DNA from: Eledone cirrhosa
Lineage: Eukaryota
Assembly: GCA_964016885.1 (NCBI GenBank)
Contig: OZ024746.1
Location: 33,108,001-33,172,000, forward strand
DNA: 64,000 nt
Direction of reading: 5' to 3'
Both the position numbers and the translations under genes were made by a program. Below, one piece after another: positions 15,990 through 63,444 of this stretch. How positions within the stretch are numbered: the stretch's first letter is position 1; each line of letters begins with the position of its first letter. The notes beneath the pieces are model-generated. The model was not told where the DNA came from and made no database searches. It worked only from the letters and a program-made list of their open reading frames with translations.

Positions 15990-18900
15990 CTGACCAAGAA
16001 ATACCGGGATGGCGGCCGGCGGGGAATAGCCGTGTCTCTAGGGGAGAACGACCCCTCTAGTCTTGGTTGACACTCGTTCTAGAAGTGGTAACACGAAATG
16101 ATTACCCCTTGGCGGATAAGGATAAAACGCGACAAAATAAAGTAAATGTCTAATGATAAAATCTCATACCGGATCGGCCGTCACCCGGGTAAAAAAGGGC
16201 CGCGTCCCTCAGAGAGGAACCAGACTTTTGTCGAAAAATCAGCTAATGGTTCAAACCTTCCCATCACTTCGGAGCTGGAGACCTCCCATAACCGGAATAC
16301 TCCTACTGTTGGCCCTCCATGCTCACCACCAAGAAATCCAAAGAAAAAGAGAGAAAAAGGGTCAAGGGAAGATAATAAAGAAGTCCTTGAGGCTTTCTAC
16401 ACTGCCATGTACTACCCATCAAATACATCGAATACAGAACAGACATATATCAACTGGAAAAAGAAACATCCCGAAAACAGAGGCTATATTGACAGTAACA
16501 AACTAGCCAATATACGAAGAAATATTGTAAGAAAAATGTTACTAACTGATATAGAAATTGATCAGATCAAGCTATTAGTACAAAGTCAGCGAAGGGAAAA
16601 TGAAACATGTGTCAGTGAAAACGAGGTAAACTGTAACACTTCGAACCCCAGGGTTGGGGCGGAATCACTGGCAACAGAACAAATTAAAGAAAGAATCGAA
16701 AAAGTGGAGGGAGTGCATGCTCAGGATGAAACTCCAAATGAAAATAATGAGATCGCAAATGATAAAGAAATGAATGAGAATGAACTTGCCAACTTGAAGG
16801 ATGAAATTATGATCGAATGGATGAAAATGAAAGAATCTGACATGGGGCAACGAGACACCCTCCCTAAGATCCAGAACTCCAAACAGAACCAAAAGATAAT
16901 ACACAAGACTAACATAATTCTCAAAAACATTATCATCACAAACAAACTAAACATTACTGATTTAAATCATCTCTATTATGCATCGGCTAAAGTCACCACT
17001 CACTTATGTGGAGTGAAGATGAAATAACAAAGGAATTCCCACAAGAAATCTACTTGGCAAGAGAACATCAATCGCCAATTAAACCTTCTCCGATCTGACA
17101 TAAACATTTTAACAAACTATAAAGTAGGTGAACATGTTAAACAAACTAAACTTAGAAAATTGAAAAAAAAGTACAGTATAAAATCAACATGTGACATAGA
17201 CATGCTGATAGAAATAATCAAGCAAAAAGTGTCGGCCAAAGCTGCTCGTATGAGGCGCTTTGAAAAACGATCTAGATTCTGTAAGGACAATAATATGTTC
17301 AAAAACAACCAAAGAAACTTCTACAGAAAAATTGGTAAGTCAACAATAACTGCTAAATCAATACCACCCAAGGAGGAAGTGCAAGAATTCTGGGAAAAGA
17401 TCTGGGCCGAAGAAAAAGTTCATAACATACATGCCCCATGGATAGACAGACAAATGAAAGATACAGCTCACCTTGAGGAACAAATATGGGAAAATATAAC
17501 AGTTGAATTGTTGCGCTTGGCTCTAAGAAAAACCAGCAAATGGAAATCCCCAGGAAAAGACAAAATACAAAACTTTTGGATAAATGCCTTCACAGAGTCT
17601 CATGAGCTGTTAGCCCATCTTTACAATGAAATAGTTAAGGAGCCAGAAAAGATACCATCATGGCTAGTTAACGGCATTACATTCCTGCTTCCGAAGAATG
17701 ATGAGACAAACAATCCCCAAAATTACAGACCGATAACTTGCTTGACCACAACGTATAAAATTTTAACATCAGTCCTAACTGAATACACATATGACCACCT
17801 GATAACAAATGACCTATTTCCCATTGAGCAGAAAGGGTGTAATCGAGGCTCATATGGCTGTAAGGATCAGCTTCTGGTTAACAAAATGATACTGGAAGAT
17901 TGTCATAATAGACACAAAAATCTATCGATTGCTTGGATAGATTATAAAAAAGCATTCGATAGTTTGCCACACAGTTGGATTGAAAAATGTTTAGAGATTT
18001 TCAAAATATCCCCCGTTGTCAGGAGGTTTTTGTCATTCAGTATGAAGACATGGAAAACGACACTCCTTTTGAATAGTGAAACAAAATCACTGGAGGCTGG
18101 AGAAGTTAATATTAATTGTGGAATTTTTCAGGGTGACTCTTTATCACCGCTTTTATTCTCCATCGCACTTATACCATTAAGTAAAATGCTCAATGAAACA
18201 AAACATGGATATAAAGTCTATGACAAAACCATTAATCACCTGTTCTACATGGATGACCTAAAACTATTTGCAAAAAATGATGAGCAATTGCAAGGGCTAT
18301 TATCCACTGTGGAGCAGTTCAGTGATGACATTAAAATGGAGTTTGGACTAGATAAATGCGCCAAAGCAACGTTCACCAGAGTAAAGCTGCTGAAGAGTTC
18401 AGACATTAATCTTGATCGGGGGAACGTGATAAGAGAACTTGATCAAGAAAAAACTTACAAATATCTAGGTGTTTGTGAAGGAGACGGAATCAAGCACTCG
18501 ACAATGAGGGAAAGGATAAGGAAGGAATGTTACCGCAGAGTAAGAGCAATCTTAAGAACGGAATTGAATGCAAGGAATAGTATCGATGCCATAAACACGC
18601 TTGCCATACCAGTAGTAACCTACAGTTACAATGTCATCAACTGGTCAAGCACAGAGATCCGTAGGCTCGATACAAAAATTCGAAAATTATTAACCATGTA
18701 CAGAATGCATCACCCTAAGGCAGATATAGATAGAATATATCTCCCTAGAAAAGAAGGAGGACGTGGGTTAATCCAGTTAGACATTGCGTTGAAAACTGCA
18801 ACAATTGGATTATCTACATATCTAAGGGAATCACATGATTGGATGATCAAACTCGTTTTGAAACACGAAAGCATCAAAAGATCATATTCCATTACAAAAG

Positions 18901-19966
18901 ATGCACAAAGATACAGTAATGGATTACAAATTTCAGAAGTCCCATTTACTGCTGAAATGGAAAACACAGAAAAAGAAAAGCAGGTAAAAGTAACTGCAAA
19001 GAAAGAACTGCTACAGAAACTGGCTAAGAAATGGCAAGAAAAGCCTCTGTATGGAAAATACCCAGAGCGAGCTAACAATCCTGATGTTGACAAAACTTTA
19101 ACCCATCAGCGGTTGGCATCCTCTGGACTGAAATCGGAAACTGAAGGACTGATTATATTAGCACAAGATCAGTGTCTGCCAACAAAAAATTACCAAGCCA
19201 ACATAATTAAAAATGGATGCAGCCCATTATGCCGTGTATGCAAAAAACAACCAGAGACCATTGACCATATAATTTCAATGTGCAGTCCTATAGCTCCAAC
19301 CGAATACCTAAACAGGCATGACAGAGCTGCACAATACATACATTGGATAATGTGTAAGCATTTTGACCTGCCCCATCAAAAGAATTGGTGGGAGCATCAA
19401 CCACCTCCCATACTTGAAAAAGATCACATCTCAATCTTGTGGAACTTTAGCATCCAAACAGACCGAAAAATAGATGCAAATAGACCTGATATAATATTGA
19501 AGGACTTTAAAAAGAGGGTATGCCTGCTAATTGATATGTCTGTTCCAATAGACAAGAATGTATCTATAAAAACATTTGAAAAATTGAGCAAGTATAAGGA
19601 CCTGGAGATAGAAATTGGAAAAATGTGGAAATTGAGAACTAAAACAATACCAGTGGTTGTAGGTGCTCTGGGAATGATACCTAAGGGGTCTAATGATTAC
19701 TTATCGCAGATCCCAGGAAACCCGCGTATAGGAGAAATACAAAAGATAGTACTAATGGGAACTGCCCATATACTAAGGAAGATTCTGTCAATATAAGTAC
19801 ATCACAAGTTTAAACACCTAAAGATGCATGTGTGTGTGTATGTATGTTCTTCCTTGAACATGGCGGACTTGTTGTCTCTTGAGGTCACTGGTTGTGACTT
19901 GGTGATAACTCGTATGAACATAAAGCAAGATAAATGCAACTGTAATAATAATAATAATAATAATAA
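15990..19966 (+). mobile_element. Near full-length R4/Dong-clade non-LTR retrotransposon (RT + CCHC + restriction-like endonuclease)
   Basis: ORFs 16146-17027 and 17160-19796 are in the same frame, separated by one TAA. Motifs: RT (GIFQGDSLSPLLF, YMDD), CRVC..H..C knuckle, RHD, RPD..D..K RLE. Ends in (TAA)n. Confidence 0.92.
16146..19796 (+). pseudogene. ~1216-codon RT-RLE polyprotein with a single in-frame stop at 17025-17027
   Basis: I read 17028-17159 in frame and found no further stop; domains as above. Confidence 0.85.
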
Positions 19967-29662: not shown

Positions 29663-30211
29663 TTACGAAGACTTTCTTCCTTGAAATCGCAATTCTGAAA
29701 ACATCGTTTCTTAGTTGCACGTAAAATAAAATTCTCACTTGCTTTTACCTCTGCAACTTTTACTACGTTCCTTGTATCATGCATACACACGAATCACTTC
29801 CATATATACATATATATATATATATATATATGAGAGTATTGAAGTTTGCTTGAAGCATTTTGGAATAATAAGTAAATATCTTTAAGTCGTTTGGAAGCCT
29901 CGACAATGCAAATGGGTAAATCTCCGGGTAACAAGATCCGGTGGTGGAGAGAGAGATGTAAGTGGGTGTACGTTGAGATGCGTGGTGTGTATAAGACGTG
30001 TAAAGGAATGAAAGAAAGAGTATAAAGGATAAAATAAAAATAACAACACGAGAGTGAGTTACCTTGGGAGAGATTTAATTGTCCCTATATATTTCGGATT
30101 CACATCCATCAACTGGGGGTTTTTTTCCGGGGTGGGGGAAAGGTTGTCTGTCGGAAAGGTGCGAAACGCGTCCTCCGCTGTTTGTTGTTTTGAATAATAT
30201 ATATATATCTT

Positions 30212-30546
30212 GCAAGCGGTGGGAGGGACCGTCCTGACGAAGGCCAGTTAAGCTTGAAATGTATAGACGTTTGTCCCCCTTGCTTCTTCTGGACATCACC
30301 AGAGCGCGTTAGCCCCCCCCCCCCACGGTATTTGCATAGCTACGGCTTCCTAAAACCGCATTTCTTTGGAGATACGAAATATTTATACATATTGTATAAA
30401 GCTATGCTTGAAGCGAAATCCTATTTCTTTTTTCATTATAAATTGAGCCAACTTATGCAGCTTCATATGCAAATGAGATTAATCACCTCATTTATACAGA
30501 CGAGAAAAGTATATATTCTCGCCTGTTTTCTAGTCCAGCAGTCGCA
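30212..30546 (+). mobile_element. 332-nt hammerhead-containing retrozyme-like monomer (family G, permutation 1)
   Basis: cgtc-CTGACGA(30234)-aggc cagttaa gctt-GAAA-tgta-TA-gacg; begins and ends with gca; circular permutation of 52831-53142. Confidence 0.85.
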
Positions 30547-30569
30547 TATATCTATATATCTTCACCCAC

Positions 30570-37645: not shown

Positions 37646-38422
37646 TAATTGTTTCTACTTTTGGCACAAGGCCAGCAAATTACCCAGTGCATTACTGGTA
37701 CTTTATTTTATCGACCCCGTAAGGATAAAAGGCAAAGTCAACCTCGGCGGGATTTGAACTCAGATCGTAAAGGGACGTAACTATGCTGGAAAGCATGGCG
37801 TCCGACCCTCTACCGATACTGCCAATCCACCGCCTTACGAATATCATTTAAATAATTGTTTCTACTTTTGGCACAAGGCCATCAATTACCCAGTGCATTA
37901 CTGGTACTTTATTTTATCGACCCCGTAAGGATAAAAGGCAAAGTCAATCTCGGCGGGATTTGAACTCAGATCGTAAAGGGACGTAACTATGCTGGAAAGC
38001 ATGGCGTCCGACCCTCTACCGATACTGCCAATCCACCGCCCTTCATTGTTTCTACTTTAGGCACAAGGCCAGCAATTACCCAGTGCATTACTGGTACTTT
38101 ATTTTATCTACCCCGTAAGGATGAAAGGCAAAGTTAACCTCGGCGGGATTTGAACTCAGATCGTAAAGGGACGTAACTATGCTGGAAAGCATGGCGTCCG
38201 ACCCTCTACCGATACTGCCAATCCACCGCCCTTCATTGTTTCTACTTTAGGCACAAGGCCAGCAATTACCCAGTGCATTACTGGTACTTTATTTTATGTA
38301 CCCCGTAAGGATGAAAGGCAAAGTCAACCTCGGCGGGATTTGAACTCAGATCGTAAAGGGACGTAACTATGCTGGAAAGCATGGCGTCCGACCCTCTACC
38401 AATACTGCCAATCCACCGCCCT
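37646..38422 (-). mobile_element. Head-to-tail array of four SINE S1 copies
   Basis: Four near-identical ~190-bp units starting near 37646, 37853, 38046 and 38236. Confidence 0.92.
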
Positions 38423-41860: not shown

Positions 41861-42290
<430 letters not shown>

Positions 42291-43021
42291 TATTGAAGTA
42301 TAAAATAGGATTTAAAAATATTGAAATAGAAGGATAAATTGAAAGCAAATTCCTGACATGTGTGTATATATATATTTATTTAATTCTCCCCGCATCTATA
42401 CATACACACATACACACACACCAATATATATATATATATATCCTGTAAACAAATTCATGAATACATAGATACATGGTGAGTGTTAAATAACCTTTTTATT
42501 ATATACAATCTTTGCCGAAAGGAAGTTGCAGGAGAAGTAGAACGGAGCAGAGTATTAAGGAGATATGCGAATATTAATGGTCAGGATATAGAGAGACAAG
42601 TTGACTTTTCGCGTGTATTGCTTAATAGGTCATGTCTTCTACACTATTTTATACCATTAAATATTTGCAACATCTAAAATAAAACAGAAATTTAAAAGAA
42701 AAGATGGTTATATTGACAACAAACGAGGCTTGGAATCGTCGTTTAAGAAACATACGTAAAACGTTATATAGATAAGTACATGGATAGCTGTATACATGTA
42801 CATACATAAATACATACGTTCTGCTCATGCCAATATGCACAAATTTATATATATATATATATATATGAAATTTCGTTTCATTTTTTCCGTATATACATAC
42901 ATATATATATTTATATGTGTATTTAAATGTATATTTATATGTATATGTATATATATATATATTTATATGTATATATATATATATATATATTTATATACAT
43001 ATAAATATATATATATATATA

Positions 43022-43476
43022 TGCAAAGTTTTATTTAAATTGTTGGGTTACAACGAGTAAATATTTATAACTGATATAAAAGCACTCAACAAGTATTTGG
43101 AGTATATTTACGATATTAAATAAATGGAAACTATATTTATAAAACCATATTTATTTCATTATATATATTTCAGGGATATCATATTAAAAATATGGTATGC
43201 CTTCTTCAGACAAAATACAATATAAACAGTCTTATAAATAGATAGATTTGACATACCTTACAACTTCAACTTCCATTTAAATCAACTTCCATTTAAATCA
43301 ACTTTTTAAATGGAAGTTGAAGTTGTAAGGTATGTCAAATCTATCTATTTATAAGACTGTTTATATTGTATTTTGTCTGAAGAAGGCATACCATATTTTT
43401 AATATGATATCCCTGAAATATATATAATGAAATAAATATGGTTTTATAAATATAGTTTCCATTTATTTAATATCGT
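43022..43476 (-). mobile_element. Family A fold-back hammerhead element (copy 4)
   Basis: Tail on the left; arms 43111-43283 / 43306-43475; CTGAAGA(43377)-agg...cct-GAAA-tatata-TA-atgaaata. Confidence 0.88.
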
Positions 43477-43513
43477 ATATATATATATATATATATGAAT
43501 ATATATACATGTC

Positions 43514-43547
<34 letters not shown>

Positions 43548-43751
43548 CATATATATAGACATACATATGAATATATATACATATATACAAATATATATAT
43601 ATACACATACATATATATATATATAAACATGTGTATATATATATATGTATACATATGTGTATATATATATATATACATTTATATATATATTTACACACAC
43701 ACACATTATATATATAATGTGTGTGTGTGCATATATATATATATAAATGTA

Positions 43752-44327
43752 TACAATATTAAATAAATGGAAAACTATATTTATAAAACCATATTTATTT
43801 CATTATATATATTTCGGGGATATCATATTAACAATATGCTATGCCTTCATCAGACAAAATACAATATAAACAGTTTTATAGATAAATATATTCGACATAC
43901 CGTAATAAACATCAACTTCATTTGAAGAGGTTCACTCTAGCAGTGAAAATACAGAGAGAAAGAAAGAGAGAGAGAAAAGAGGGAAATAAGAAAGAAAGAG
44001 GGTATTTCCCTCTTTTCTCTCTCTCTTTCTTTCTCTCTGTATTTTCACTGCTAGAGTGAACCTCTTCAAATGAAGTTGATGTTTATTACGGTATGTCGAA
44101 TATATTTATCTATAAAACTGTTTATATTGTATTTTGTCTGATGAAGGCATAGCATATTGTTAATATGATATCCCCGAAATATATATAATGAAATAAATAT
44201 GGTTTTATAAATATAGTTTTCCATTTATTTAATATTGTAAATATACTCCAAGTATTTGTCGAGTGCTTTTATATCAGTTATAAATATTTACTAGTTGTAA
44301 CCCAACAATTTTAAATATAACTTTACA
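43752..44327 (+). mobile_element. Family A fold-back hammerhead element (copy 5)
   Basis: ~235-bp near-perfect arms centred near 43995; CTGATGA at 44138; tail to 44327. Confidence 0.88.
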
Positions 44328-52800: not shown

Positions 52801-52830
52801 TACTAAAAAAAAAAAATATATATATATATA

Positions 52831-53142
52831 TGAGCCAACTTATGCAGCTTCATATGCAAATGAGATTAAATACCTCATTCACACTGAGGAGAAATGTATA
52901 TATTCTCGGCTGTCTTCTAGTCCAGCAGTCGCAAGCGGTGGGAGGGACCGTCCTGACGAAGGCCAGTTAAGCCTGAAATGCATAGACGGTTCTCCCCCTT
53001 GCTTCTGCTGGACATCACCAGAGGGCGTTAGCCCCCCGGTGTTTGCATAGCTACGGCTTCCTAAAACCGTATTTCCTTGGAGATACGAAATATTTATACA
53101 TATTGTATAAAGCTATGCTTGAAGCGAAATCCTATTTCTTTT
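52831..53142 (+). mobile_element. Family G retrozyme-like monomer, permutation 2
   Basis: accgtc-CTGACGA(52953)-aggc cagttaa gcct-GAAA-tgca-TA-gacggt; segment order rotated relative to 30212-30546. Confidence 0.88.
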
Positions 53143-53151
53143 ATATCTATA

Positions 53152-53201
<50 letters not shown>

Positions 53202-61780: not shown

Positions 61781-61781
61781 C

Positions 61782-61968: not shown

Positions 61969-62262
61969 TATATATATATAACGAAGGAAATGTGGTAAGG
62001 AGCCAGATGGACCATAACGCACCAAAGTACTCAATACTTAGAGTAGTAGAGTGAGTAATAGGAACAAGTAGGGCCCCGACGGCGGAAATCAAGCCGTTTC
62101 GACGGGTAATTCTGGACTAATTAGCAGTCGAAACGGCTTGAGCTCAGCCGTCGGGGTCCTACTTGTTGCTATATATATATATATATATATAATTTGTTTG
62201 TTAAAATATATATGTATAAAATATATATATATGTATATATGTATATATATATATATATGTCT

Positions 62263-63114
62263 TTTTTTCCGTTTGTCATTTTCGGTGCACCCGGCCGATT
62301 AACCCACTCGATATGAAAATTGGGCTACTCAGCCGTTAATATGCATAAGGTAAGTATATACGTTCAACAATCTGGCAGGAAGGTATACGTTGCTGACGAT
62401 AGCTAATAAGCTTGAAACTAGAACAGCGTTCCTTTGTCAGTGTTGATAAACGAGCAACGATGGTTGCTGGACACTACGGCTTAATACGGGATGTTTGTTT
62501 AGAAACACACCGAGCATTATAATAAATGTTCGGTGAATCCATACGTACATATATATATGTGTGCATGTATGTATATATATATACATACTACTGTACGTCT
62601 GCATACATGTATGTATGTACGTGTACATACTTATATTTAAGTAACAGCCGTACGGGGAATGGAAAATGAAATTTCGTTTCATTTTTTCCGTTTCTCGTTT
62701 TCGGTGCACCCGGCCGATTAACCCACGTGATATGCAAATTGGGCTACTTAGCCGTTAATATGCATAAGGTAAGTATATACGTTCAACAATCTGGCAGGAA
62801 GGTATACGTTGCTGACGATAGCTAATAAGCTTGAAACTAGTACAGCGTTCCTTTGTCAGTGTTGACAAACGAGCAACGATGGTTGCTGGACACTACGGCT
62901 TAATACGGGATGTTTGTTTAGAAACACACCGAGCATTATAATAAATGTTCGGTGAATCCATACGTACATATATATGTGTGCATGTATGTATATATATATA
63001 TATACATACTACTGTACGTCTGTATACATGTAAGTATGCACGTGTACATACTTATATTTAAGTAACAGCCGTACTGTGAGTGGGAAATGAAATTTCGTTT
63101 CATTTTTACCGTTT
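62263..63114 (+). mobile_element. Head-to-tail dimer of a ~419-nt hammerhead-containing monomer (family I, retrozyme-like)
   Basis: Period 419 (cggtgcacccggccg at 62283 and 62702); acgttg-CTGACGA-tagc taataa gctt-GAAA-ctag-TA-cagcgt at 62806-62848; the copy at 62387-62429 has AA instead of TA. Confidence 0.88.
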
Positions 63115-63217
63115 ATATATATATATATATGTATATATATATTATATATATAATATATAATATATGATATATATATATATATATTATATATATAATATAT
63201 AATATATGATATATATA

Positions 63218-63258
<41 letters not shown>

Positions 63259-63281
63259 ATATATAATATATGATATATATA

Positions 63282-63444
<163 letters not shown>

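Follow-up and report, generated by a model that had tools for sequence, protein, structure and literature searches.

The two-unit insertion and its predicted hammerheads

The DNA analysed here, referred to below as the window, is a stretch of 64,000 nt from Eledone cirrhosa (contig OZ024746.1, positions 33,108,001 to 33,172,000, forward strand). At 62263 to 63114 on its forward strand lies a single insertion composed of two head-to-tail units and an 11-nt overhang, which forms one direct arm, has no inverted arm, and ends at what proved to be the long 3' end of a dispersed repeat family. Its features, with coordinates in the window, are as follows:

62264 to 62682, forward strand: unit 1, 419 nt
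62683 to 63103, forward strand: unit 2, 421 nt, 95% identical to unit 1
62372 to 62440, forward strand: hammerhead motif 1, with extended helix I; U16.1>A at 62422, cut site predicted dead
62791 to 62859, forward strand: hammerhead motif 2, predicted cut at 62842/62843
62424 to 62842, forward strand: cut-to-cut monomer, 419 nt, predicted to be 69% paired as a circle
62732 to 62739, forward strand: octamer ATGCAAAT, conserved across subfamilies and in the sister family
62929 to 62952 (also 62510 to 62533), forward strand: hairpin named in the preliminary description, with compensatory changes in older subfamilies
62958 to 63051, forward strand: long AT-rich self-complementary hairpin whose (TA)n loop expands in older subfamilies
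63053 to 63057 (also 62632 to 62636), forward strand: position of the short 3' end, unused by the window copy
63058 to 63114, forward strand: tail between the short and long ends, about 57 nt, with the long end at 63114
62170 to 62258, no strand: upstream (TA)n target run, from repeat annotation
63114 to 63444, no strand: downstream (TA)n target run, from repeat annotation, starting at about 63114/63115

A preliminary description, made from the sequence alone, had presented the locus as an exact dimer with a terminal redundancy of about 12 nt and (TA)n flanks. The two tandem units and the flanks on both sides are indeed there, and the redundancy measures 11 nt (63104 to 63114, a repeat of the unit start with one mismatch); the exactness did not hold, as the units match at 400 of 418 aligned positions, with 18 differences and one 2-nt indel. 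They stand about as far from each other as from the units of other loci, and have two rare variants in common with roughly 4% divergence since, as expected for one insertion that has subsequently decayed. Any target-site duplication is masked by the (TA)n of the two flanks. The unit is non-coding (GC 38%; the longest ATG frame is a low-complexity 81 aa on the minus strand), and the dimer is absent from the list that Tandem Repeats Finder gave for the window.

Each unit contains a CUGACGA core (62393 and 62812) followed by GAAA and a CUAG loop, with a four-pair stem II above a U-U mismatch and a six-pair stem I continued by an extended helix. In motif 2, stem I pairs 62806-62811 with 62843-62848, the core spans 62812-62818 and the GAAA 62833-62836, stem II has the U-U base and an AAUA loop, and helix III consists of one pair with the palindromic ACUAGU; the predicted cut site is GUA. 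A minimal hammerhead with a CTAG loop in each unit, and a change of the first copy's cut site from UA to AA, had both been proposed, and both were recovered, the latter as U16.1>A, an allele found in 1% of loci; the U-U mismatch at the base of stem II (10.1:11.1) was absent from that description. The window copy could release no monomer because the cut site of unit 1 is mutated, and with one dead site the dimer could be cut once at most. Under a paired-hammerhead model (PMC7761336), the intact catalytic strand of unit 1 might still serve the site of unit 2. A copy is termed 'active' by Li et al. if it has two consecutive complete hammerheads (bioRxiv 10.64898/2026.07.22.740005), a definition that excludes the window copy on account of U16.1>A in unit 1; locus L003 (G000:C1:30731934-30732788), a natural dimer, has two intact motifs.

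Searching Rfam returned no hammerhead match either at the gathering score or at E<=10, and sub-threshold matches to Rfam miRNA families turned out to be the AT-rich hairpin. The assignment to type I hammerheads is drawn from the core sequence and from covariation. In the family at large, 148 of 176 cores are intact at end-anchored loci, and in loci chosen by their ends and not by their core, 36 substitutions fall on core positions where matched columns predict 58.8. Alignment A1, whose core is invariant by construction since its rows were picked with the core pattern, was used for stem covariation only. Two-sided changes affect 7 of the 21 hammerhead stem pairs (20 regions), more than in all 500 shuffles and all slid controls, a statistic inflated by the relatedness of the sequences; across whole units (n=10) they affect 23 of 112 predicted pairs, so that the structural covariation among homologues that had been asked for is present at both levels.

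Compared with shuffled sequences, the predicted fold of the cut-to-cut monomer scores z = -7.9; once the AT-rich hairpin is left out, the remaining 325 nt score z = -4.8. All of the additional stems noted beforehand, namely the two hairpin copies listed above and AGCCGT/ACGGCT, are present. For the octamer ATGCAAAT, whose unit 1 counterpart (62313-62320) is mutated, a role as internal promoter is a guess; newt satellite 2 has an octamer promoter of the snRNA type.

Other elements in the window

Another hammerhead family, with a unit of about 345 nt that has an octamer, is found at 30206-30550 and 52823-53155, the two copies being 90% alike and starting at different points of the unit. This is probably the other monomer to which the 419-nt unit had been called unrelated, and BLAST found no similarity between the two. 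More hammerhead-like cores occur at 2712/2866, 10993, 12247/12398, 42090-44138, 51293, 52383/52614 and 61024; several have a palindromic loop III and lie in inverted pairs, and they represent further Penelope-type repeat families. Adjoining the dimer, at 61976-62172, is a two-armed, (TA)n-flanked element with one long and one short end, whose family recurs as a partner arm at locus L045 (see below). The segment 49980-51185 is the 3' part of a GIY-YIG Penelope element with two 3' ends about 190 nt apart and 48,908 candidates genome-wide. The window further contains long reverse transcriptase-like reading frames at 16146-19796 (293 and 922 aa), likely of a LINE, and three tandem copies of a 190-nt repeat at 37855-38422, with a single copy near 61781.

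Family size and subfamilies

Rather than being a single-locus unit, an outcome for which the preliminary description had allowed, the unit is dispersed in thousands of copies. We searched 3.0 Gb of genome with exact patterns, whose counts are lower bounds and whose reversed controls gave 0, and found at least 5,424 intact hammerhead cores, at least 2,684 + 451 + 280 long ends joined to (TA)n, and at least 3,884 short ends. By the testable features the family belongs to the animal non-LTR retrozymes, with which it is compared below.

Older subfamilies are 72-85% identical. A sister family with a 470-nt unit (1,524 candidates, of which 40 were scored and are mostly 97-100% alike) is younger; it keeps the layout and both kinds of end, has replaced stems, a G-C pair at the base of stem II and mostly a GUC cut site (example L230:4680-6150, at G000:C1:163.57 Mb), and is the best candidate for activity assays. 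The units also build arrays: a satellite-like one of about 50 units at L217-L219 (G000:C1:51.772-51.794 Mb) and one of an older subfamily with a 3.5-kb higher-order repeat at L228-L229 (C2:60.57-60.61 Mb). At C2:60.57 Mb, pairs of hammerheads lie 3.5 kb apart, which was considered as a sign of an autonomous element and proved to reflect this higher-order array. Likewise, the alternating AB array at L220 was considered as evidence of a dimer circle and rejected, its interior repeats being identical and its ends different, which points to later local expansion.

Fixed ends and two-armed insertions

A genome-wide survey for permuted ends had been proposed; the copy ends gave the opposite picture. 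The 3' ends are fixed at two Penelope-type sites about 57 nt apart, the long and the short end, both joined to (TA)n and lying about 272 and 215 nt downstream of the predicted ribozyme cut. At the 5' side truncation is variable, and multimers typically have a non-integer length and a 5' end that differs from copy to copy. A tail between two ends is a signature of Penelope-like elements (PLEs; PMC8557442), and has been traced to two internal start sites of reverse transcription (PMC11167929).

Many copies are two-armed. On contig C1, the arms of the first 99 loci with a long end and 61 with a short end were mapped against native arrays; of the places listed, one with a long end and some with a short end were passed over, most of them the same or neighbouring insertions, and seven repeated loci were counted in the end-pairing tallies and removed from the arm statistics. 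Among the 99 long-end loci the inverted arm was missing in 43, ended at the short site in 49, at the long site in 0 and elsewhere in 6, with 1 at a sequence edge. The 61 short-end loci comprised 23 without an inverted arm, 30 in which it ended at the long site, 5 in which it ended elsewhere and 3 at an edge; the short site accounted for 0. For a replicate we fetched 60 loci and kept 50, leaving out 10 that were clustered or had been seen before; 26 of the 50 lacked an inverted arm, 14 were long-short pairs, 0 were same-end pairs, and in 10 the arm ended elsewhere. The ends of the inverted arms also join (TA)n, for which they had not been selected. Long ends are thus paired with short ones by a rule of about 92 to 1 that is not absolute, the long-long exceptions being L370, which the classifier had overlooked, and, in a BLAST-picked set, L021.

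Mixed insertions with Penelope-type partners

In 6 of 210 end-anchored loci (L037, L045, L087, L319, L323 and L357) the family's arm stands head-to-head with an arm of another Penelope-type element, the long-ended retrozyme arm directly abutting a 5'-truncated partner with no (TA)n spacer. L235, fetched for another reason, is a seventh. These loci were picked by eye from free 5' flanks and by BLAST against a small library, and the count is accordingly approximate. The partner arms of L087 and L323 are Penelope coding sequence from Hydra-type elements, that of L037 is the 3' region of the L087 family, and those of L045, L319 and L357 are other (TA)n-ended Penelope-type repeats. Wherever the two ends of the partner family are known the partner uses its short end (5/5, with a few extra bases at L037), which fits the prediction of the long-short pairing rule; since the partner families use either end about equally often, the chance of 5/5 is about 0.03. 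At the loci checked, the far side showed none of the upstream sequence that the partner lacks. The mixed loci could also be later insertions accompanied by deletion of the target.

Neighbouring coding elements have the DKT, CxCx5C, CxxC and CxH motifs that define the (TA)n-targeting Hydra-clade PLEs (PMC8557442). Protein P0001, for instance, possesses DKT, the CxCx5C linker, and CxxC and CxH in a C-terminal GIY-YIG domain, and CxCx5C is also present in the L235 arm. On these motifs we assign the partner proteins, provisionally, to the Hydra clade; the Pfam GIY-YIG match (E 0.0016) is below the cut-off. The Hydra-type element at L229:5586-9830, with a 768-codon open frame and all four motifs, abuts an array and was considered as a further mixed insertion. 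It was rejected as such, since the array sequence resumes past its 3' (TA)n; the element likely inserted into an internal (TA)n loop of the array. A comparison with 30 loci of one abundant GIY-YIG family revealed no autonomous element whose terminal repeat resembles the unit. With at least three coding families among the partners, the repeat seems to be served promiscuously by several PLE families. The fixed ends and the mixed insertions point to mobilisation in trans by Penelope reverse transcriptases, which we regard as very probable.

What is copied

The 5' stops show no excess at the hammerhead cut site (6 against 5.8 expected in 199 passages, 2 against 1.5 in 44 passages of the replicate; together 8 against 7.3), and this argues that the template is not a cut linear monomer, while a circle and an uncut multimer both fit. 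Arms exceed one unit in 109 of 290 cases and two units in 13 of 290. Drop-off rises gradually with length (Weibull shape about 1.5), and no step after one lap was found in it. Stops do cluster at unit positions 405-30, a window chosen post hoc, with 26 against 14.6 expected and 7 against 2.8 in the replicate (by arm type, 21 against 9.6 for long-end and 12 against 8.0 for short-end arms), and the cluster could mark the 5' ends of linear transcripts. The near-integer length of the window dimer follows from its own 5' end falling among these positions.

Per kb, segments of one locus share 2.3-2.6 rare variants, those of different loci 0.13 and nearest partners 0.82, and sharing is as frequent across inverted arms as along tandems. 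At L276, five segments on both arms are 0.1-0.2% apart and have three rare variants in common. With L276 left out, loci with at least three overlapping segments contained 37 shared rare variants, of which 6 were present in all segments; gene conversion or a template of several units would explain this better than a single circle. An RNA-editing scar was sought and is not supported (A>G against T>C is 214 to 142 per locus; per column p is 0.08 and the top columns follow G). Core conservation and within-locus sharing of rare variants count for a circle, which we consider the rather more probable template.

Discussion

Like the metazoan non-LTR retrozymes (PMC7229834; bioRxiv 10.64898/2026.07.22.740005), the family consists of non-coding tandem units of a few hundred nt, each with one type I hammerhead and high self-pairing, and numbers thousands of monomeric, dimeric and arrayed copies; its unit length and GC content agree with the roughly 150-450 nt and the GC below 50% that characterise the group. 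A similar one-pair helix III with a palindromic tetraloop is seen in HHR_Amex1 of the axolotl, and a similar U-U under stem II in HHR_Amex2. The unit is slightly longer here (420 nt), and the octamer hints at an internal promoter, whereas retrozymes seem to be without one according to PMC7761336. Mobilisation by PLEs has been proposed in the retrozyme papers from co-occurrence or terminal-repeat similarity; here insertion ends and mixed insertions indicate it directly. With the Hydra-clade PLEs of PMC8557442 the family shares partial tandems, 5' truncation, an inverted 5' copy, a tail at one end, (TA)n targets and hammerheads, and it differs in having no ORF and a tail of about 57 nt against 30-40; in the autonomous families examined, no terminal repeat resembling it in sequence was found. 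The PAc Poseidon element (PMC11167929) similarly has two internal start sites downstream of a hammerhead, with a spacing that equals the tail. In vitro its protein, a predicted dimer, yields cutting and extension of both target strands, and its start sites did not differ from strand to strand, whereas here the two arms almost always use different sites. In the available literature on octopus or cephalopod hammerheads, Penelope and twin priming, neither a family of this sort nor mixed arms came up; the word 'ribozyme' is absent from the accessible part of the octopus repeat annotation PMC13282606, and the main text of bioRxiv 10.64898/2026.07.22.740005 names no mollusc, though its supplements may list relevant families.

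We lean towards the explanation that the window harbours an aged two-unit copy of a dispersed non-coding hammerhead family whose fixed ends join (TA)n. On this reading, a Penelope-type (Hydra-clade) reverse transcriptase-endonuclease likely inserted it in trans, and probably from a ribozyme-cut, re-ligated RNA circle. The hammerhead RNA would cut itself, likely as paired hammerheads (helix III being one pair plus a palindrome), and the monomer would be re-ligated into a circle. A Penelope-type protein would then cut both strands of a (TA)n run, and both DNA ends would then act as primers, with the long-end site as the internal start for one and the short-end site for the other; the template would usually be retrozyme RNA and sometimes another Penelope-type RNA. 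The copies would have a median length of about 370 nt, many being longer than one unit, and the 5' ends of the two arms would finally be joined.

Possible, and in our judgement somewhat unlikely, is Penelope-driven insertion from an uncleaved linear multimer transcribed from tandem source loci, with the hammerhead cutting rarely or aiding processing, as in autonomous Penelope elements. The genome does hold arrays of about 50 and of 10 units that could supply such RNAs, and read-through of the cut site, the stop excess near unit positions 405-30 and the absence of most shared variants from some segments would all be accommodated. The weak anatomy of the ribozyme (a U-U mismatch under stem II and a helix III of one pair) points the same way, as do the use of mainly uncleaved RNA by PAc in vitro (PMC11167929) and the lack of cleavage in 8 of 9 Xenopus retrozyme dimers (bioRxiv 10.64898/2026.07.22.740005). 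Against this, the deficit of core substitutions and the retention of the core in a sister family with replaced stems suggest that cleavage matters, L276 has five near-identical segments that share three rare variants over both arms, and comparable animal retrozymes accumulate as circles (PMC7229834). The rolling-circle reading given in the preliminary description is not established by the dimer: its units have diverged by 4-5%, and an uncut multimer explains read-through of the cut site equally well.

We find it improbable that the window dimer is a local tandem duplication of a single inserted unit and that multimers are generally DNA-level expansions. The two rare variants common to its units and a 5' end almost exactly at the unit boundary would be expected, and local expansion does happen, as in the identical interior repeats of L220; yet non-integer multimers with variable 5' ends prevail, stops near the unit boundary are enriched across the family, and divergence is 0.043 between tandem and 0.039 between inverted pairs (28 loci), so that the rounds are as old as the insertion. 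Very improbable, finally, is a SINE-like or satellite repeat copied by a conventional LINE, its hammerhead-like motif incidental: the missing Rfam match and the long reverse transcriptase-like frames of other kinds in the window are in keeping with it, but no poly(A) or LINE-like 3' end was seen, the (TA)n targets and the pair of fixed internal ends are those of PLEs, and stem covariation and mixed insertions with PLE arms speak against it.

Building on the circle-templated explanation, a Penelope reverse transcriptase dimer may load two RNAs, one at its long-end and one at its short-end start, on the two sides of one (TA)n break, accepting promoter-bearing ribozyme circles interchangeably with the RNAs of several Hydra-clade elements. 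Mixed insertions would then be fossils of co-loading and would identify the enzyme that spreads animal retrozyme circles. We hold this extension to be nearly balanced, leaning slightly against it.

The window locus itself is an ordinary decayed copy. In the retrozyme literature available to us, both the enzyme that spreads animal retrozymes and copying from a circle have been proposed and not demonstrated. The family described here names candidate enzymes, the Hydra-clade Penelope proteins, with both start sites mapped to within a few bases, and its long-short pairing rule constrains the integration of Penelope elements themselves. Its intact natural dimers, together with the younger sister family, make the mobilisation step testable in vitro.
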